From NCBI GenBank assembly GCA_016204145.1, contig JACQLK010000016.1, positions 9,181-73,180 of the forward strand: DNA of 64,000 bases, in the 5' to 3' direction. Below are positions 4,984 to 55,095 of this stretch, piece by piece. Origin of the DNA: Candidatus Pacearchaeota archaeon (GTDB lineage Archaea > Nanobdellota > Nanobdellia > Pacearchaeales > GW2011-AR1). Positions within the stretch are counted from its first letter, which is position 1. Each line of letters opens with the position of its first letter. The position numbers and the translations under genes were made by a program. The notes beneath the pieces are model-generated. The model was given only the letters and a program-made list of their open reading frames with translations. It ran no database searches and had not been told where the DNA came from.

Positions 4984-6213
4984 TTACCTCCACGAATAAT
5001 TTCCCGTAAAAAATTTATACAGCGAAATGATGACCACTAAAGGCCTTAGCATTATGTATGTTAAAGAATAAAAAATCACGTTAAAAAATCCTTCCTTTTC
5101 GCGGATGTGCTCGTTGACTCTCTTCAATGCGAAAAAAACAAATGCCATTCCGAAGACAAAAAGAACAACTCCGAGAAAATTCAAGACGGACGGATTGAAA
5201 TTAACGTCTTCCATTGCGATTAAGACGGTTTGTGCGGCTATCGAATATTTCGTGGATAAATACCACAAAAGAATTTCCTGAAAAATCCTGTAAAAGAATA
5301 TTCCCAATCCGAAGACGCCGAGAACAAGGGATATTGAAAAAAATGGAAGAATAAACCAACCGAGCATTCCTTTCCTGAAAAAAGAATCCTTGTATTTCAA
5401 AATTGTCTGATATCCCCCGATGTTCCATCTTATTCTCTGCTTGAACCATTTTCCCAAAGTGTCGGGCGCGACCGTCGTGGATTTTGAAATAAAAGACATT
5501 CTCACGTCGTATCCTTCGTGAACCAAATGCCACGTCACTTCGATGTCCTCTGTCATGTTCTTCGCGTCAAAGCCGTTGATTTTTTCCAGCGCGGATTTTC
5601 TGTACAAAGCCAAAGGTCCTGGGGTGACGTAAATTGAATCCAGAAAATCAAGGAGTTTTCTTGAGAAGGCGATTACCTTGTATTCTATCGCCTGCATCTT
5701 TCTTAAAAAATTGTTCTGATTGCGGACAAGAATCCTCGTCGTTACAGCCCCGACTTTTTCATCGTTGAAAAATCCGGCCATTGAAGATATGGCGTGTTCG
5801 TCGGGATAGGAATCCGCGTCGACAACCCCGATGATTTCCCCTTTCGCAATTTTCAGTGCCTGATTCAGCGAGTCCGCCTTTCCCGAATTTTTCTTGTCAA
5901 AAACAATGACATTTTGGAATTTCCTTTCAAGTTTTTTTGCAATTTCCAGCGTCTTGTCCGAGCTACCGTCGTTTATTATTATCACTTCAACAATATTTTT
6001 ATAATTTGATTTCAGAACCGTCTCCGCCGTTTCTTCGATGCTGTCCTGCTCGTTGTAAGCGGGAATCAAAATTGAAACAGAATAATTTTTCCCGGGCGTC
6101 GGAACTGAAAAAATCTCTTTCCGGTTTTGCATGAACGTCAGGGTAAAAAGGGAAAGAAAGTAAAGCGTAATAAACATGTACGCCAAATAGATTGTTGTTA
6201 AAATTTCAACCAT
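4984..6213 (-). CDS. family 2 glycosyltransferase, membrane (cellulose/chitin-synthase-like architecture)
   Basis: ILIPAYNE..D..DAD motif region, N- and C-terminal TM segments. Confidence 0.75.
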   Translation of the reverse strand: MVEILTTIYLAYMFITLYFLSLFTLTFMQNRKEIFSVPTPGKNYSVSILIPAYNEQDSIEETAETVLKSNYKNIVEVIIINDGSSDKTLEIAKKLERKFQNVIVFDKKNSGKADSLNQALKIAKGEIIGVVDADSYPDEHAISSMAGFFNDEKVGAVTTRILVRNQNNFLRKMQAIEYKVIAFSRKLLDFLDSIYVTPGPLALYRKSALEKINGFDAKNMTEDIEVTWHLVHEGYDVRMSFISKSTTVAPDTLGKWFKQRIRWNIGGYQTILKYKDSFFRKGMLGWFILPFFSISLVLGVFGLGIFFYRIFQEILLWYLSTKYSIAAQTVLIAMEDVNFNPSVLNFLGVVLFVFGMAFVFFALKRVNEHIREKEGFFNVIFYSLTYIMLRPLVVIISLYKFFTGNYSWR

Positions 6214-18717: not shown

Positions 18718-19062
18718 TTATTTTATCTTCGCCCCGACTTCGACATCCTTCTCGGGAGAAATCAAAATAACTTGCATTTCATCTTTGCTCGCCGCCGCAA
18801 GAAGCATTCCGTTGCTTTCAATTCCTTTCAACATTCGCGGAGCAAGATTCGCGACGATAATTATCTTTTTGTTTTTCAGTTCGTCTTTTGAGTAATGTTT
18901 TTTTATTCCCGCGCAAATCACGCGCTTTCCGATTTCTTTTCCCAAATCAACGCTCAGTTTGTAAAGCTTGTCCGCGCCTTCAATGTCCTCAACTTTCAAG
19001 ATTTTTCCGACTCGCAAATCCGTTTTCGCGAAGTCGTCGTATGAGATTATGGATTCGGTCAT
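18718..19062 (-). CDS. tRNA-binding protein (Trbp111/CsaA-like, stand-alone MetRS C-terminal domain)
   Basis: DLRVGKILKVEDIEGADKLYKLSVDLG..VANLAPRMLKGIESNGMLL matches Myf/tRNA-binding OB domain. Confidence 0.8.
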   Translation of the reverse strand: MTESIISYDDFAKTDLRVGKILKVEDIEGADKLYKLSVDLGKEIGKRVICAGIKKHYSKDELKNKKIIIVANLAPRMLKGIESNGMLLAAASKDEMQVILISPEKDVEVGAKIK

Positions 19063-19502
19063 TTTACCGCTCCATCTTCAATCTCAAAGTAAGCTTCTTT
19101 ATCAGACGGATTAAAAATTAATTTGGCCTTTGTCTTTAGCAGAAAATCTATTCCCAATAAACTCGGTTGGAGAGAATTATCTTCTCCTTTGATAGGAAAA
19201 TCCACAGACATTTCAACTTCAAAATCCCCGAATTTTAGTTTTGCTTTTTCAAGGACTATTGTAAAAATTTGCCCTCCACCAATATTTACGGGTTTATGCT
19301 TGCCTTGTAGTTTGGCAAGTTGCACTTTTGAAATTCTAGTCCTTTTCATATCCAAAGGACCGATAAGAGTTACCGGACTTCCTGTGTCTACAATTGCCCG
19401 TATGGGAATGAATAAATGCGGGTCTTCCGACCTTAATAAAAAAACAGCAATAATCCTCAAGCTTCCGGCAAAAAATTCTACATTTAAAGGAATTTTTCTC
19501 AT
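19059..19502 (-). CDS. retropepsin-like aspartic protease
   Basis: IVDTGSP catalytic motif (D-T/S-G) and LLGIDFL flap-like segment. Confidence 0.55.
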   Translation of the reverse strand: MRKIPLNVEFFAGSLRIIAVFLLRSEDPHLFIPIRAIVDTGSPVTLIGPLDMKRTRISKVQLAKLQGKHKPVNIGGGQIFTIVLEKAKLKFGDFEVEMSVDFPIKGEDNSLQPSLLGIDFLLKTKAKLIFNPSDKEAYFEIEDGAVK

Positions 19503-19503
19503 C

Positions 19504-19749
19504 TTAAAGAATCAAGATAAATCCTTCTGGATGAACAAACTCTATAAAAGTGAAGGAAGGGTTTTCTCCTCTTTTTTCAATTTCTTTTATTACAACATCT
19601 ACATTTTCATTAGAAACAATCGGTTTAGAATTTTTTATAGCCACGAATTTGCCGACAAAGCCCTCTTTTTGTAATTTAGATATATTTCTATGAAACCATT
19701 CGCTGTCTCTCTCAAAGTTTTCCAAAATCTGCGTTTCTTGGCTTGTCAT
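19504..19749 (-). CDS. small hypothetical protein co-transcribed with retropepsin-like protease
   Basis: 81 aa, 1-nt gap to downstream protease gene. Confidence 0.4.
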   Translation of the reverse strand: MTSQETQILENFERDSEWFHRNISKLQKEGFVGKFVAIKNSKPIVSNENVDVVIKEIEKRGENPSFTFIEFVHPEGFILIL

Positions 19750-19891: not shown

Positions 19892-22612
19892 TTACCCCAA
19901 GCTCTCCTCGATTATCTTAATCTCATCTGAAGTCAAACCGTAGAGTTTGTAAACCTCGGCGTCGATTTCATAGTCAATGTTTTTTATCTGTTGTTCCAAT
20001 CTTTCTTTTTCATTTCCGGAAACGCCGGAGTCGTGATTTTTCTTTTGAATCTCAAGCATTTCATTGACGAGGGAAATGATTTTTTGTTGTTGGGGAGGAG
20101 AAACTTTCGGAATAATTATTCTTTCAGTAACGGGATTATCAAATTGCATTGTTCTTATCGCTTTTCCAAAAATAAATCTATAGGCGTACCAATTAGTTAG
20201 TTTTGAGTTAATTATCGCAATTAAGAATTCTGAAGAAAATTTATTCTTATTTTGAAGTTGATTAATTGTATCCACAATTATATAATCATTAATTTTTAAA
20301 TCATTAGATAAAGAAGCTGTTATTTTTATATGGTCAATTGGATTCTCAATGTGTGCTACTATTCTCTGAACCAAAATAGAATTTTGTTTGATAAACGCTT
20401 TTTCATCTTTAACAACTTTTTTAGATATATACCCTTTAACATCTGAAGAAATAACATATCTTCCAATTTGCATACCTCCTAAAACCATTAAATCAGATTT
20501 TTTATCTGTAACTTCTTTTTGGTAAATAGCTCCTCGCCGATTAATAATTAAATCATTTAACGAAACCCCAGAATTTTTTATTTTTCTTCCGACGTTTAAT
20601 TCTTTATCAGAAATTCCATTCAGCAAAAATCCAAACTCTTTGAAAGTTTCTTTGTTTATCTTTCCAACACATTTAATTTCTTGGTTGTCTCTTACACAAG
20701 AATTATAAAATTTTTCACTCTTATTTTTATTATAAAAATAAATAACTTGTTCAAGTTTTACTTCTTTCCAAACTTTTCCTACGTCAACAACTTCTTTTAA
20801 ACCTTGCAAAAGTTTTTCTCTTATTTCTTCCCAAGTTGAAGAATAAACAAATGGTTTAGGAATAATAAACCCATTAATTCCTTTAGAATTTAATAAATCA
20901 ACTGCAAGAGACATAAACAAACAAGCCGTATCAGTATTTCCTAATTTAAACTTCTTTTCTAATAATTCTCTATCCTTCTCTGGCAAATCCGCACCATACG
21001 GCGGATTCCCGACGACAACGTCAAATCCTCCGTTTCTGAAAACATCAGGGAACTGCGCGTTCCAATTAAACGCCTTGTCTCCCGCTACTTTTGAATCGTC
21101 AATCAAGGAGTTTCAGTTTTTTATGTTATTTTTCAAATTAGGAAGCAAAAGCTTTCTCGTCTCCCTTGTTTCTCCTTCAAGAAGTTTCAGCAGCAAATTC
21201 AACTGCGCCAGCTCAACCGCCTTCTCGTCCAAGTCAACGCCGTAAACGCATCTTGAAAGAATTGTGATTTTTTGCGCCAAATTCAACCTGTCCTCGTAAT
21301 TTTTAAAAGTTGAATTTTTGCTTTTGTCTCCTCTCTTCATTTTTTCCTCAACAGCATCGCAAACCTCCTGAAACGCGCGAATCAAAAAACTTCCGGAGCC
21401 GCAGGCAGGGTCAACTATTCTGACTTCCAATATTTCGTCAATGGATTTATCTTTTACATATTCTCCGACAGTATTTTTGACGATGTAATCCACAATGTAA
21501 GAGGGAGTGTAGTAAATTCCCATCTTTTTTCTTTTTCCGCTTTCGGAATCCAACTTTACTCTTTGTTCTGTTCCCCTCAAAACAACGCCGAGGTATTGCT
21601 CATATATGCTCCCGAGCAAATCGCCGGGAATCTCGTCAAACATATATCGCGACTGCTTATTTTCCACGCCAAAATAAAGAATTTTTATTATTTTTTCCAA
21701 ATTCTCATCATCTAAAAAAATATTTTTCTCATCTTCAAGTATTCCCGAAGAAAATAATTTTGAATTGTATGATTTGTCAAAAATCTTGAACTGTTCATCC
21801 AATGCAGGCCACAATTTCACCTTTAATCGGCCTTCTCGTGAATCCTTGACAAGTCCAAGCAAAAAATTCTGATTCTCCAATCCCCTGTCTTCGGCGGAGC
21901 GCATAAAAATCAACCTATCAATTAAAATCTGTATCGCCTCGTCTATCTGCTCGTCTGTCAGATAATTCCTTAATTTCTTCAAATCGTTGGAGAGCAATCT
22001 TCTTATTTCAAGCAAATCGGCTAAAATGCTTTCGTCAACCGGGACAAATTGCTTTTCGTCTTTTTTTGATAAAAGTTTATTTATTTCTTGTTTTTCAAAA
22101 CTTTCCCTTGAAATAAGCCACAACTTGTCAAATTCTTTTTCAAAATCCTTAAACTCAAGCCAGAATAATAAATTCTTGTCTATGTTTTTTATATTTGAAA
22201 GCGCGTGATAAACCCTGAAATATTTAAAATTAGTAAGAACCGAAAATTTTATTTTCCTGTGGTAGGCGTAAGAAACCGCCTGTCTTCCCTCGTCTTCCGA
22301 TAAAGAAACATTTGTTTTTTTCGCCTCAACAACCAAGCTTTCCTGATTTCCGATTCTTAAAATATAATCCGCCCTTCCTTTAAGCACTCTTTTTTCTTTT
22401 GAAATATCTTCCCTATTCCAGCCCAATGCTTCAAACAGCGGCTCAATGAATTGAAATTTTATATCTTCCTCAGGCATTGAATCCAATTCGCTCTTTGATT
22501 TCAGCGAAAATTTGCGGACTATCTTTTCTACTTCTAATTTCGCTTCTTCCTTAGTTGTCATTTTATATTTTTTTGAAAAGCACCTCCGCCTTCTTAATTT
22601 TATTCGTCTCAA
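19892..22612 (-). pseudogene. Type IIG restriction-modification fusion enzyme (PD-(D/E)xK nuclease + gamma-class N6-adenine methyltransferase + TRD) interrupted by one in-frame TGA at 21113..21115
   Basis: N-terminal GRADYILRIGNQESLVVEAKK (D..E.K nuclease motif), motif I VDPACGSGSFL, then TGA, then in the same frame motif IV VVGNPPYG; listed halves 21113..22612 and 19892..21106 are separated by only two codons. Confidence 0.7.
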
Positions 22613-23948
22613 ATATTTTATTAATCTTCTCCGACGTTTGCGGAATGAACGGCGAAAGATAAAAACTTATTTTTCTTATCGCTTCAACCAATTCAAACAA
22701 AACTTTTTTGTCATGCGTCTCCCACGGCTTTTTTTCCTGAACATATTCGTTGCAAATATCAACAAAAGCAAAAATTTCATTCAGCACTTTGTCAAGCTCG
22801 TAATTTTCAAAATGATTTTCAATTTCTTTTTCCTTAAATTTTTTCATCAAATCGTTTTGCGTTTTCTCAATCCCGTATTTTTCCGCCAGCGCGCTCACGC
22901 GCGAAACGAGATTTCCCAGCTTGTCCGCGAGCTCGTTGTTATGCCTGTCAACAAGCGCGGTTCTTGAAAAATCCCCATCTTCACCGAAAGGCACGCTTCT
23001 CATCAAAAAATATCTCGCCGAATCCAAGCCCGCGAGCGAAACCAGCTCGTCGACGTTTATCACGTTTCCCGTCGTCTTTGAGATTTTCTCGCCTTCAATC
23101 GTCAGCCATCCGTGCGCGAAGACATTTTTCGGCGGCTTGATTCCGGCAGAAAGAAGAATCGCGGGCCAAATCGCGGAATGAAACCACAAAATTTCTTTTC
23201 CCATCAAATGCAAATCCGCGGGCCAGAATTTCTCTTTTCCTTTTTCCCTCGTCGCGGAGTAATAATTCGTCAGCGCGTCAAACCAAACGTAAGCGATGTG
23301 TTTCTCGTCAAACGGAAGTTTTATTCCCCAGTCAAAGCTCGTTCTTGAAATGCTCAAATCCTGCAATCCCCCTCTCACCCTGTTGATAATTTCCATCTCC
23401 CTGCTTTTCGGAAGGATGAATCCTTTCTTGTAAAGCGCGAGGAGTTTTTTCCGGTATTTCGAAAGTTTGAAAAAATAACTTTTCTCTTTTAATTTCTCGG
23501 CTTTTATTTTATGCACGGGACAAAACCCGTCAACCAAATCTTTCTCCGTGTAATATTGCTCGCAAGGAGTGCAGTAAAATCCCTCGTATTTCCCGAGATA
23601 AATGTCTTTTTTATCATAACACTTTTGCAATATCTCTCTGACAACTTTCTCGTGGTCCTTGTCCGTCGTTCTTATGAATCTGTCATAATCAACATTTAAT
23701 TTTTTCCAATCATCTTTGTATTTTTTCACAAGTTCGTCTACAAATTCCTTCGGCTTCTTCCCTTGTTTTTTCGCCGCGCTTTCAATTTTTTTTCCGTGCT
23801 CGTCTGTTCCCGTGAGAAAAAAAACATCCTCTCCTTTCAAGCGGTGCCATCTCGCCAAGATATCTGCCGCTATCGCGGTGTAAGCGTGCCCCACATGAGG
23901 GATATCATTCGGATAAAAAATCGGCGTCGTGACGTAAAATTTCTTCAT
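22563..23948 (-). CDS. metG: methionyl-tRNA synthetase (catalytic core, no C-terminal tRNA-binding domain)
   Basis: PIFYPNDIPHVGHAYT (HIGH), KISKT (KMSKS variant), CxxC knuckles (CTPCEQY..CPVH). Confidence 0.85.
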   Translation of the reverse strand: MKKFYVTTPIFYPNDIPHVGHAYTAIAADILARWHRLKGEDVFFLTGTDEHGKKIESAAKKQGKKPKEFVDELVKKYKDDWKKLNVDYDRFIRTTDKDHEKVVREILQKCYDKKDIYLGKYEGFYCTPCEQYYTEKDLVDGFCPVHKIKAEKLKEKSYFFKLSKYRKKLLALYKKGFILPKSREMEIINRVRGGLQDLSISRTSFDWGIKLPFDEKHIAYVWFDALTNYYSATREKGKEKFWPADLHLMGKEILWFHSAIWPAILLSAGIKPPKNVFAHGWLTIEGEKISKTTGNVINVDELVSLAGLDSARYFLMRSVPFGEDGDFSRTALVDRHNNELADKLGNLVSRVSALAEKYGIEKTQNDLMKKFKEKEIENHFENYELDKVLNEIFAFVDICNEYVQEKKPWETHDKKVLFELVEAIRKISFYLSPFIPQTSEKINKIFETNKIKKAEVLFKKI

Positions 23949-24557: not shown

Positions 24558-24727
24558 GCGGCTTTGGTCTAATGGCATGACGTCACCTTCCCATGGCACT
24601 TTTCACTGAAGGTGAAAAAGGCATAAGCGGAATTCGCAAGAATTCTGGCTACGAGCATTTTTTCAGAAAATGCGGAAATGATTCTCGGAAAAAGGTGGCT
24701 GCGCGGGTTCGATTCCCGCAAGCCGCA
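24558..24727 (+). tRNA. intron-containing tRNA, anticodon probably CCC (Gly); ~98-nt intron at canonical 37/38 position (approx 24594..24691)
   Basis: acceptor GCGGCTT/AAGCCGC, T-arm GCGGG-TTCGATT-CCCGC, anticodon stem TCACC/GGTGG only pairs across a ~98-nt insert; intron contains cGGAATTCgcaaGAATTCtg hairpin with GNRA loop. Confidence 0.6.
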
Positions 24728-31141: not shown

Positions 31142-31708
31142 ATGTCCGGAAAAAATTCCGCAAGCGCGTACCAAATCCAAAACATCGTCGCCACAACGTC
31201 CCTTGAAAAACCGGTTCCTCTTGTAAAACTCGCAAGAACCCAGCCAAACACGGAGTACAATCCAAAGACATTTCCCGGTTTGGTTTTAAGGGTAAAGGAG
31301 CCGAAATCGGCGGTTCTCGTATTCTCATCCGGAAACCTTGTCTGCACCGGAACAAAATCAATCGCCCAAGTGAAACAGGTCATTGACGTTGTCATAAAGC
31401 AATTGAGAAAAATAAACGTGAACGTCACCATAAAACCGAAGATAACGGTGCAAAACATCGTCGCTTCCGGAACGATAAATTTGAAATTGAACCTTAATTT
31501 TCTTGCGATTGAAATGGAAAACACGGAATACGAGCCGGAACAATTTCCGGGATTGGTTTACAAGCTGAACGAGCCGAACGCGACTTTTCTTTTGTTCAGC
31601 AACGGAAAACTCGTTTGCACCGGAACAAAAAACCGCCAACAATTGGAAGACAGCATGGACCAGCTTTTGAAAAACGTCAAAACCGCGCTGAAAAATTACA
31701 AGGGATGA
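31142..31708 (+). CDS. tbp: TATA-box binding protein
   Basis: two direct repeats each with NIVAT/S..L and LVCTGTK signature; ends with TGA stop. Confidence 0.95.
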   Translation: MSGKNSASAYQIQNIVATTSLEKPVPLVKLARTQPNTEYNPKTFPGLVLRVKEPKSAVLVFSSGNLVCTGTKSIAQVKQVIDVVIKQLRKINVNVTIKPKITVQNIVASGTINLKLNLNFLAIEMENTEYEPEQFPGLVYKLNEPNATFLLFSNGKLVCTGTKNRQQLEDSMDQLLKNVKTALKNYKG

Positions 31709-51554: not shown

Positions 51555-52622
51555 TCACAACCCCAGCCTCTCCACGAATTTTTTCTTGTCAAATGCCTCT
51601 ATCTCGCCGTAATTCTGTCCCGTGCCGAGATACAATATCGGTTTTTTCACGACATATCCCACAGAAAGCGAGGTTCCGCCTTTTTCGTCTATGTCCGCCT
51701 TCGTGAGAATTATCGCGTCAATCCCAATCGCGGAATTAAAACTTCCCGCCTGCTCGACCGCGTCGTTTCCGGTGATGCTTTCCCCGATGAAAATTTTCAA
51801 ATCCGGCGCGCAAACCCTGACGATTTTTTCCATCTCTCTCAAAAGATTTTTCGCGGTGTGCATTCTCCCGGCGGTGTCTATGAGAACGCATTCTATTGAA
51901 TTCTTTTTCGCGTATTTTATCGCGTCAAATCCCACCGACGCGGGATCGGAGCCGTATTCGTGCGAAATCACATTGACTCCGATTTTATCTCCGTGAAATT
52001 TCAACTGCTCTATGCTCGCAGCCCTGAACGTGTCCGCCGCCGCGAGAATTGCAGAGACGCCGCGCGACTTCAAATTCTCCGCGACTTTCGCAACCGTCGT
52101 CGTCTTTCCCGAACCGTTTATTCCGCAAAACAAAATAACATAAGGATTTTTCTCTTTCTCATTTTTCTCTTTTATTTTTTCAACAAGATCGAACGGCTCT
52201 ATCAATATGTCTTCTATGATGTCTTTCAGCGAATCCTTTATCTGCTCTTCGACTTCTTTTTTCAAAAATTCCTGATTCACGATTTTTCCCTTCAATTCGC
52301 TTATTATCTTTTCGGCTACGGGAAACGCGACGTTGTTTTCAAGGAGAAGCGTTTTCAATTCCTCCCCGTAAACGTCAAACTCCTTGTCTGAAATCTTGAC
52401 CTTTGAAATTTTCTCCCTGACCCTTTCAAAAAAACTCTTCGTCTCCTCTTCCTCGCTTTTCTCCGGCGCGGGAACAATTATCTTTTTTCGCGGTTTTTCT
52501 CCTTCCTTTCTCCCAATTTCTTTTTCCTTTTCGGTTTTCTCCGGGAATTCTTCCGGCTTCGTCTTCTCTCTTGTTATTTTTTCGGCCCAGCTCTTTATCT
52601 TTTCTTTCAGGAATTTGAACAT
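51555..52622 (-). CDS. ftsY: signal recognition particle receptor FtsY
   Basis: acidic/Lys-rich N-terminus, NG domain with GINGSGKTTT, DTAGR. Confidence 0.9.
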   Translation of the reverse strand: MFKFLKEKIKSWAEKITREKTKPEEFPEKTEKEKEIGRKEGEKPRKKIIVPAPEKSEEEETKSFFERVREKISKVKISDKEFDVYGEELKTLLLENNVAFPVAEKIISELKGKIVNQEFLKKEVEEQIKDSLKDIIEDILIEPFDLVEKIKEKNEKEKNPYVILFCGINGSGKTTTVAKVAENLKSRGVSAILAAADTFRAASIEQLKFHGDKIGVNVISHEYGSDPASVGFDAIKYAKKNSIECVLIDTAGRMHTAKNLLREMEKIVRVCAPDLKIFIGESITGNDAVEQAGSFNSAIGIDAIILTKADIDEKGGTSLSVGYVVKKPILYLGTGQNYGEIEAFDKKKFVERLGL

Positions 52623-54537: not shown

Positions 54538-55095
54538 TTGATTTTTATGATTACTTACAACGAAATTTACGAAGCAGTGAGAAAAGAGCGCGCCGAGGAG
54601 TTGCAGCCGCTGCCGAAAAATTTCCTTGACGAAGTGTCAGTATACCTGAAGGAAAAAAAAGAGTTCTCTTCGAAAAATATCGACGATTTCTCCGATTCGG
54701 CGATGAAGGCGAAAAAACAGCTTGAAAATGCAAGGACTTTGTTTAAGGAATTAATTTTGAGGAGGAGAAAAAAAATACTTAATCTTCTTCTTATTGCAAC
54801 AGAGACGGGAATTTCAAAAAAGGATTCTGAAAACATGCTTGAATTTGAGAAGACGATGTTTGAAAATCTCATGAAATCCGTCGATTCGACCGAAAGTCAG
54901 GTAAACAGCTTATTCAACGTAAAAACAGAAGAAAGGATTGTCTCCGGAAAAACAATCGCGTTTAAGGAAGACGTCGACGAGTTTTTTGACATGGAAGGAA
55001 AACTCATAGGCCCGTTTAAAAAAGGCGAGAAAGCCGAGTTGGATGAGGAAATCGCAAAAATCCTCGTTGAAAGTGAAAAGGCCGAAAGATTGTGA
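54538..55095 (+). CDS. GINS subunit Gins51-like (Sld5/Psf1 family)
   Basis: helical N-terminus (YNEIYEAVRKERAEELQPLPKNFLDEV) + small C-terminal beta domain, 185 aa; located 2 kb upstream of mcm. Confidence 0.5.
   Translation: MIFMITYNEIYEAVRKERAEELQPLPKNFLDEVSVYLKEKKEFSSKNIDDFSDSAMKAKKQLENARTLFKELILRRRKKILNLLLIATETGISKKDSENMLEFEKTMFENLMKSVDSTESQVNSLFNVKTEERIVSGKTIAFKEDVDEFFDMEGKLIGPFKKGEKAELDEEIAKILVESEKAERL

Follow-up and report, generated by a model that had tools for sequence, protein, structure and literature searches.

The question raised by this locus is what to make of a restriction-modification (RM) gene that appears whole save for one in-frame stop codon: has the gene died, is the stop somehow bypassed or put to use, or has the assembly gone wrong? 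The gene lies on the minus strand of a 64-kb stretch of DNA (the window) from the chromosome of a tiny groundwater archaeon, a Candidatus Pacearchaeota (DPANN) known from a metagenome-assembled genome (MAG), its two halves having been deposited separately as MBI4116460.1 and MBI4116459.1. Two open reading frames (ORFs) are listed, at 21113..22612 (499 aa) and 19892..21106 (404 aa), and an earlier note on this DNA had claimed that they share a frame and are parted by a lone TGA; translation of the minus strand from 22612 to 19892 bears this out, giving a single internal stop (TGA, 21115..21113) in the setting ...LLLPNLKNNIKN-stop-NSLIDDSKV...FDVVVGNPPYG. We propose, with a probability of roughly 0.8, that a mobile RM gene was recently made a pseudogene here by a nonsense mutation, GGA having become TGA within an otherwise intact piece of lineage-specific cargo; it is, in other words, an ordinary, recent gene death and not a new coding trick.

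The gene as a whole, a type IIG RM pseudogene, spans 19892..22561 on the minus strand, from an ATG at 22561, through the TGA at codon 483, to a natural TAA at 19894-19892, with a read-through length of 889 aa. Position 22612 merely marks where the first TTG occurs in the open frame, in a stretch shared with the end of the neighbouring metG gene; we take the ATG at 22561 as the real start because residue 1 of the query then aligns with residue 1 of its closest homologue. The N-terminal fragment (21116..22561, 482 aa), assigned through Pfam and an exact match to MBI4116460.1 (‘N-6 DNA methylase’, Candidatus Pacearchaeota archaeon), holds a PD-(D/E)xK nuclease domain, a helical connector and methyltransferase motifs X, I and II. 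The C-terminal fragment, as annotated in GenBank (MBI4116459.1; 19892..21106, 404 aa), starts at a TTG two codons past the stop, which is the Leu codon of N-S-L, and contains motifs IV-VIII together with the target-recognition region. Catalytic and cofactor-binding elements are intact on both sides: the endonuclease motif region ADYILRIGNQESLVVEAK (22319..22372; D65 ... E79-x-K81, all three residues invariant across 61 family members), methyltransferase motif I for AdoMet binding (VDPACGSGSFL, 21383..21415) and, downstream of the stop, the catalytic motif IV (NPPY, 20996..21007). Motif I and NPPY, like the three endonuclease residues, do not vary within the family. The earlier description of an otherwise intact frame of 906 codons was right as to intactness, with 70 of 71 invariant and 103 of 108 near-invariant family positions kept and no frameshift found in the gene, and wrong as to length, the count being 889 sense codons with the TGA position included.

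Conceptually read through, the frame is predicted to encode a single-chain type IIG (MmeI/Eco57I/BpuSI-like) RM enzyme, in keeping with what the earlier note had proposed. The PADLOC profile REase_MTase_IIG (PDLC03604) matches residues 6-628 with E 2.5e-114, leaving the C-terminal third outside the profile; Pfam finds HSDR_N_2, MmeI_N, N6_Mtase, MmeI_Mtase and Eco57I; and full-length homologues of ~890-900 aa were found with identity of up to 76%. Together with D65/E79/K81, motif I and NPPY, the read-through product has the makeup of a type IIG enzyme (endonuclease, gamma-class N6-adenine methyltransferase and target-recognition region in one polypeptide), but no ORF here is able to yield that polypeptide in full, with TGA standing at codon 483. 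An AlphaFold model of a 76%-identical homologue (pLDDT 85) matches CamA, BrxX/PglX, BpuSI, MmeI and DrdV.

Several features are shared with the MmeI family of single-chain enzymes (type IIL/IIG; Morgan et al. 2009). The putative catalytic residues sit at nearly equal positions to D70/E80/K82 of MmeI (PMC2731913); the helical connector, gamma-class N6-adenine methyltransferase and C-terminal recognition region follow in the same order; no second methyltransferase gene adjoins, the flanks here being the methionyl-tRNA synthetase (MetRS) core, a DUF5678 protein, an Asp-protease-like protein and the MetRS tRNA-binding subunit; MmeI_N scores 28-29 bits against a cut-off of 27, and MmeI_Mtase is also above threshold. 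The match between the homologue model and the MmeI structure (5HR4; Foldseek E 2e-18, TM 0.50/0.58) comes with ~12% identity and speaks for the fold only. In contrast, the MmeI_Mtase match spans only positions 16-148 of a 259-position profile, the Pfam families for the MmeI helical, TRD and C-terminal regions give no match to the read-through frame at E<=0.01, MmeI is not among the PDB sequence matches at E<=0.001, and this copy sits in a DPANN archaeon and carries a premature stop. Judged by these searches, the protein appears to fall outside the MmeI family where membership is defined by whole-length similarity (PMC2731913).

The strongest profile matches are to the Eco57I methylase domain (PF07669, 117 bits) and the PADLOC REase_MTase_IIG model. 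In the Eco57I system a companion methylase is encoded separately; this locus has none. BpuSI (3S1S) and DrdV (7LO5), like MmeI, give full-length Foldseek structural alignments with the homologue model, and the methyltransferase and recognition core of BREX PglX/BrxX (8C45, 9EWZ) and of CamA (7LNI) has the same fold, the top PDB match being CamA (E 4e-25), with a query-normalised TM-score of 0.56 for BrxX. Unlike both PglX and CamA, the protein has a conserved N-terminal nuclease motif. NCBIfam PglX models match only in part (best 45.9-48.7 bits against cut-offs of 400-900) and no BREX genes were found around the locus, where the neighbours are housekeeping or small genes; we rejected identification as BREX PglX on both of these grounds.

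Which residue does the stop replace? The premature TGA (21113..21115; minus-strand context AAT AAC ATA AAA AAC TGA AAC TCC TTG) falls in N-I-K-N-stop-N-S-L-I (21101..21127), at the position of Gly483, and when the read-through product is aligned to its family this column is Gly in 120 of the 120 best homologues. The surrounding columns read N(120) I(110) K(109) C/N(69/47) G(120) N(120) S(120) L(119), so that the ‘NIxCG(N/D)SL’ motif given in the earlier note is right and the stop lies on its invariant G; the note’s placing of the stop between motifs I and IV also holds, and can be sharpened to motif III, between motifs II and IV. Since the codon at this site is GGA in the two closest homologues, the lesion amounts to one G>T transversion, GGA (Gly483) to TGA. 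The Pfam Eco57I match breaks in two precisely at the stop (profile 2-46 on the N-terminal side, 49-165 on the C-terminal side), and reading the stop as Gly restores one match of 117 bits over profile positions 2-165 of 171. In the 76%-identical homologue as modelled by AlphaFold, the corresponding G488 comes next after a strand at 485-487, the third of the Rossmann fold, which lies between strands 444-448 and 518-523.

We think it unlikely that the TGA is a sequencing or assembly error, or the consensus of a mixed population, behind which GGA and an active full-length enzyme would persist in the organism or in much of its population. The window is metagenome-assembled, the Logan contigs break repeatedly inside the island (at 22212, 22421, 21779, 19813, 19617 and 19588), which could reflect low coverage or strain variation, and the G>T change matches a known type of oxidative-damage error. 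Against this, most reads would have to carry a substitution error, and the same T is present both in the GenBank MAG and in Logan contig SRR12113430_7404, which is 100% identical to window positions 21779-19813, TGA included. The stop is not one assembler’s artefact, the two assemblies being separate, though their read sets may overlap and they are perhaps not independent samples. Exact look-ups find the organism otherwise only as short Logan contigs, of which the sole one that covers the site has TGA. Scans of genome and metagenome contigs for a sense codon from the same species gave nothing closer than ~80% identity, and, because a collection of 5.8 billion proteins holds no full-length protein above 76% identity, no intact allele appears to have been assembled anywhere; a search with the 220-aa segment across the stop returned five short, distant matches, missed known fragments of the gene itself, and is uninformative on alleles. 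A second possibility is that the stop is real and is programmed to be recoded or read through, with some ribosomes inserting an amino acid at UGA (Gly, as under genetic code 25, or else Trp, Cys, Arg or Sec), to give a low dose of full-length enzyme and a translational attenuator or switch for a dangerous protein. We find this hard to credit. The stop does sit exactly on a Gly, reassignment of UGA to Gly is known in Gracilibacteria and Absconditabacteria, and the remainder of the frame is intact; yet GGA belongs to the ~8 codons from which one change gives TGA and occurs 28 times in the gene, which makes the coincidence unremarkable, and none of the 120 homologues has a stop at the site. TGA is a true terminator in this genome: it ends TBP (31142..31708, plus strand), as the earlier note had correctly observed, it ends FtsY and Gins51 at the last positions of their Pfam profiles, and it ends a third (23 of 69) of the other long ORFs in the window. 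Under a reassigned code UGA would be unused as a terminator and would stand in frame in many genes, but a six-frame search for adjacent long open segments parted by one stop found no other gene split by an in-frame TGA in the 64 kb. The other candidates for window-wide recoding were dismissed as separate complete genes (FtsY with a 243-aa ORF, and Gins51 with a 609-aa ORF). The tRNAs within the window are Ile(GAU), Thr(UGU), Val(GAC) and an intron-containing tRNA-Gly with anticodon CCC, none of them with UCA, and near-cognate read-through would put Trp, Cys or Arg at an invariant Gly. An Rfam scan of the window gives tRNAs only, and the RNA downstream of the stop has no unusual structure (z = -0.51). 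A selenoprotein, which would call for a SECIS element, was discarded on the Rfam result and on the aligned residue, Gly in all 120 homologues and not Cys or Sec. Frameshifting by -1 at the heptamer A_AAA_AAC directly before the TGA was likewise set aside, homology resuming in frame 0 right past the stop, and we treat the heptamer as a by-product of N-I-K-N coding. Among the literature matches listed, judged by title and abstract, none was a DPANN-specific report of such recoding. Equally doubtful, in our view, is that UGA is simply tolerated, whether by low-rate read-through (through a near-cognate tRNA or an unseen tRNA-Gly(UCA)) or as a GGA/TGA polymorphism maintained in the population; were it true, expression of a mobile type IIG enzyme in a DPANN episymbiont would be kept below the toxic level or confined to part of the population, and a defence gene would have a ‘dimmer’, acting through translation or at the level of the population, in an archaeon whose genetic code is standard.

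The two halves might instead be made separately, by termination and reinitiation at the TTG two codons past the stop, and assemble as a two-subunit enzyme; stop and possible start are 6 nt apart, split methyltransferases exist in other families, and GenBank does annotate two proteins. We give this little credence, since the invariant G-N-S of motif III would be deleted, the TTG has no upstream Shine-Dalgarno-like sequence, and a split at this point occurs in none of 120 homologues and none of ~34 examined loci; on the homologue model, moreover, the break would lie within the Rossmann fold, directly after strand 3. Least credible of all is a phase-variable ON/OFF switch, with either slippage in a repeat tract or a site-specific inversion turning the gene on and off. 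Bacteria offer well-known examples of phase variation among type IIG and type III RM genes, and an A6 run lies directly upstream of the stop, but such systems use repeat tracts or inversions and a point nonsense codon provides no reversible high-frequency switch. The lesion here is an in-frame substitution with frame-0 homology right beyond it, so that any slip along the A6 run would destroy the reading frame instead of restoring it; Tandem Repeats Finder reports no tandem arrays in the gene, and no meaningful inverted repeats were found around the stop. The earlier note had left the choice between a recent nonsense mutation and a stop-based switch, and it is the former that stands, on the invariant Gly, the GGA ancestry, the intact remainder and the TGA in Logan, while the switch finds no support, for want of a tract, an invertible repeat or an RNA structure and with TGA an ordinary terminator in this genome.

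The pseudogene sits between the genes for the two MetRS subunits, all on the minus strand: to the left the core gene (metG alpha, 22563..23948, 461 aa), with its stop codon 1 nt ahead of the RM ATG, and to the right the C-terminal tRNA-binding subunit (metG beta, 18718..19062, 114 aa). Between the RM gene and metG beta are two small co-cargo genes, encoding a DUF5678 protein (19504-19749) and a protein with a retropepsin-like Asp-protease fold (19059-19502). In the closest relative (MetRS 88% identical) synteny holds on both sides and the RM gene is absent, the slot being occupied by two unrelated small genes homologous to neither of those here; in two further relatives it is filled with yet other cargo. 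Homologues of the RM gene elsewhere adjoin integrases and a primase. Base composition adds modest evidence for transfer, with GC3 of 0.34 in the RM gene against 0.50 in the flanking metG genes, and overall GC of 0.341 (z = -1.1 against the window’s other ORFs). By these comparisons the RM gene is lineage-specific cargo. We found no convincing target-site duplications or terminal repeats around the island, and abandoned a viral origin when an IMG/VR scan gave no true relative.

Synthesising these observations, we suggest that the RM gene was acquired as cargo in the variable slot between the MetRS subunit genes, and that a single G>T transversion then turned Gly483 (GGA) into TGA. Translation would now stop after 482 residues. 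The truncated product would retain everything up to and including motif II (nuclease domain, helical connector, motifs X and I) and would be without motifs III-VIII and the entire C-terminal target-recognition region. Because one polypeptide carries recognition, methylation and cleavage, and the stop lies upstream of the recognition domain, restriction and modification should be lost together, which would be a safe way to lose such a system. The inactivation is probably recent: 396 of the 889 codons could become a stop through a single substitution, nonsense changes would make up ~6% of random substitutions, and the lack of a second stop suggests a neutral divergence since inactivation of roughly <2%, assuming neutral evolution after the stop.

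Nonsense or frameshift inactivation is a common fate of mobile RM systems. As is general among inactivated RM genes, one point mutation has struck an otherwise intact, recently acquired gene, and what is particular here is confined to the lineage of the host and to the place of insertion, between the metG subunit genes. Within this type IIG family decay is common, 3 of ~34 other loci having independent stops or frame changes at different positions.

The finding of a nonsense pseudogene matters little beyond annotation, where a pseudogene flag is due to MBI4116460.1 and MBI4116459.1, the two parts of a single type IIG RM gene that has been inactivated. The case does document that a family of single-chain RM enzymes, abundant and biochemically uncharacterised, circulates in DPANN archaea on mobile DNA, with quick gain and loss, and a GGA revertant would offer an easy route to the specificity of a DPANN restriction enzyme. 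Finally, we note that the slot between the MetRS subunit genes holds different cargo in each relative examined, which may be of interest for work on genome plasticity in ultra-small archaea.

On the minus strand, translation from 22612 to 19892 gives one frame with a sole internal stop (...LLLPNLKNNIKN*NSLIDDSKV...VVVGNPPYG), which the ORF listing divides into 21113..22612 and 19892..21106; the stop is a TGA (21115..21113), and the codons around it read AAC ATA AAA AAC TGA AAC TCC TTG. Translation also recovers the N-terminal nuclease motif D65...E79-x-K81 (22319-22372), methyltransferase motif I, VDPACGSGSFL (21383-21415), and the NPPY motif (20996-21007), all on the minus strand. The earlier note's account of a type IIG restriction-modification (RM) gene in one frame, with a lone TGA between recognisable motifs, is therefore upheld, with the strand now fixed as minus, but its 5' limit is not: 22612 merely marks where the open frame has its first TTG, whereas a protein begun at the ATG at 22561 lines up with the closest homologue from residue 1 of both, so that the gene runs 22561..19892 (889 sense positions, the stop position included). 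Directly before the stop lies A_AAA_AAC, a classic, correctly phased heptamer for -1 slippage (21113-21125, minus strand); -1 frameshifting would not restore the gene, since homology resumes in frame 0 after the TGA, and the heptamer is probably a by-product of N-I-K-N coding.

The residue replaced by the stop, which the earlier note had proposed to find by aligning the read-through product, is glycine in all 120 of the best homologues (MAFFT), and the surrounding columns are N(120)-I(110)-K(109)-C/N-G(120)-N(120)-S(120)-L(119)-I(119). Because GGA encodes this glycine in the two closest homologues, the lesion amounts, by codon comparison, to a single G>T transversion. An AlphaFold model was built for homologue P0001 (76% identical; 61-sequence alignment, pLDDT 85.3, pTM 0.74); in it the glycine directly follows a short strand (485-487) that sits between the VYGVDLD and DVVVGNPPY strands. 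We take this site to be motif III of the AdoMet-binding Rossmann fold, following the standard amino-methyltransferase motif nomenclature, which reportedly stems from Malone et al. (1995; cited in PMC2731913).

With the stop read as Gly, Pfam places HSDR_N_2 and MmeI_N at the N-terminus and N6_Mtase, MmeI_Mtase and Eco57I (117 bits, profile 2-165/171) in the middle of the protein; when the halves are searched separately, the Eco57I match is broken exactly at the stop. The best PADLOC model is REase_MTase_IIG (E 2.5e-114, residues 6-628), and the P0001 model matches the solved structures of CamA (E 4e-25), BrxX/PglX, MmeI, DrdV and BpuSI, itself a type IIG enzyme; together these bear out the type IIG identity first assigned from sequence. 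By the definition of the MmeI family in Morgan et al. 2009 (PMC2731913), the product resembles MmeI in the position of its nuclease motif, in having a gamma-class methylase and in having no companion methylase, but is not similar to it from end to end. We therefore class it broadly as an Eco57I/MmeI-like type IIG enzyme; membership of the MmeI family is rejected, as Pfam finds no match to the MmeI helical, TRD or C-terminal families (stop again read as Gly), and so is BREX PglX, for which the product reaches only about 46 bits where the cut-offs are 400-900. A search of a 5.8-billion-protein collection returned more than 7,000 homologues, the best of them full length (about 890-900 aa) and 60-76% identical, with named sources among Nanoarchaeota, Pacearchaeota, Woesearchaeota and Aenigmatarchaeota MAGs. 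As the nuclease D, E and K, motif I and the N-P-P of motif IV are invariant in 61 homologues, the family looks like one of active nuclease-methylases, not orphan methylases.

Taking these findings together, we favour a genuine, recent GGA>TGA nonsense mutation (probability about 0.8), a commonplace event in a gene of known type. Such a change would cut the enzyme short after 482 residues and take away motifs III-VIII and the recognition region; given the single-chain architecture, methylation and targeted cleavage would be lost together. Apart from the stop itself, every one of the 71 invariant family columns is preserved (70 of 71), as are 103 of 108 near-invariant ones, with all five differences conservative; alignment with homologues reveals no frameshift. 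A single substitution would turn 396 of the 889 codons into a stop, by 479 nonsense paths, or about 6% of all possible single-base changes in the gene, so that some 17 neutral substitutions should bring a second stop; none is present, which points to less than about 2% of neutral change after inactivation. The invariant glycine, the GGA ancestry and the retained columns thus agree with the first of the two readings in the earlier note, a recent nonsense mutation.

The other explanations are each individually unlikely. That the TGA is an assembly error, or a population polymorphism with, for instance, a minority sense allele, we consider improbable: by exact-sequence look-up, independent Logan assemblies of runs SRR12113383, SRR12113384 and SRR12113430 hold contigs 100% identical to the window, one of which (SRR12113430_7404, covering 21779-19813) has the same TGA, and the 5.8-billion-protein collection contains no full-length protein more than 76% identical that could represent an intact allele. 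Programmed read-through, or UGA read as glycine, is very unlikely, for TGA is a stop in this archaeon, as the earlier note had held from TBP (31142-31708), which does end in it: it ends 23 of the 69 other ORFs in the window (non-overlapping, ATG start, at least 90 aa, RM gene left out), and it closes FtsY (51558-52622) and Gins51 (54547-55092), both at the last Pfam profile positions. No UCA anticodon is found among the four tRNAs of the window, namely Ile(GAU), Thr(UGU), Val(GAC) and an intron-containing tRNA-Gly(CCC); RNA 3' of the stop is no more stably folded than shuffled sequence (z = -0.51), and when all six frames are scanned for pairs of long open segments with just one stop between them, no other split gene appears in the window. 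The tRNA-Gly(CCC) (24558-24727, plus strand; Rfam 45.4 bits; anticodon loop UUCCCA), whose intron of some 100 nt follows position 37, was missed by ARAGORN in bacterial mode.

A functional split, in which the halves deposited separately in GenBank (MBI4116460.1, 482 aa; MBI4116459.1, 404 aa, TTG start) would serve as two subunits, is, like read-through, very unlikely. Least credible is a phase-variation switch: the site has neither a tandem repeat nor a meaningful inverted repeat, and with TGA acting as a terminator, the stop-based ON/OFF alternative raised in the earlier note finds no support.

The RM gene lies between the MetRS core gene (metG alpha, 22563-23948) and the gene for the MetRS tRNA-binding subunit (metG beta, 18718-19062), and shares this slot with DUF5678 (81 aa) and retropepsin-like Asp-protease-fold (147 aa) genes (19059-19749), all on the minus strand. 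The latter two form a tight pair, the Asp-protease-like stop overlapping the metG beta start (ATGA), and may be toxin-antitoxin-like or defence-associated; the Asp-protease-like gene weakly matches the candidate defence family PDC-M08B (PADLOC, E 2.6e-4). A split MetRS is normal, being present in most Pacearchaeota relatives, with a fused form of about 600 aa in a minority. The closest relative, whose MetRS is 88% identical, keeps the gene order on both sides; there, nucleotide similarity ends at window position 22636 and resumes at 19065, and the slot lacks the RM gene and holds two unrelated small genes; two further relatives carry still other cargo. The three-gene cargo of the window differs from, and is unrelated to, that of each relative examined, such as 80-aa and 224-aa genes (locus L107) or a 124-aa gene on the opposite strand (L113), while at L110 short-chain dehydrogenase fragments follow the MetRS core, with no tRNA-binding gene before the contig end. 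The slot has the look of a hot spot at which genes are inserted or replaced. Since the window MetRS stops, at the C-terminus, 5 residues short of that of the closest relative, and the RM start codon lies 1 nt past the metG stop (TAA A ATG; 22561-22565, minus strand), the left cargo junction may fall within the last codons of metG. Logan contigs from the three runs break within this cargo island (22421, 22212, 21779, 19813, 19617, 19588) and are 100% identical to the window outside the breaks; candidate causes are strain variation, low coverage and the presence of related RM paralogues in the community.

The closest intact RM homologues adjoin tyrosine integrase genes (L001, 3015-4344 and 442-1035, where an AEP-type (archaeo-eukaryotic) primase is also found; L003, 5756-6970), which suggests that the family travels on integrative elements of DPANN archaea. 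The RM gene has a GC3 of 0.34, well under the 0.50 of the flanking metG genes though not extreme for the window. The picture is of a mobile gene, often gained and often lost: 3 of about 34 other family loci have stops or frame changes at other positions. At L054 there is a TAA near the C-terminus (nt 5028) plus a frame change, and at L060 a frame change; at L050 (nt 907) the catalytic Glu of the E-x-K nuclease motif (GAG in the window) is replaced by TAG, perhaps through a G>T change here too, and P0091, a 672-aa ORF from that contig, may be what is left of the methylase alone.
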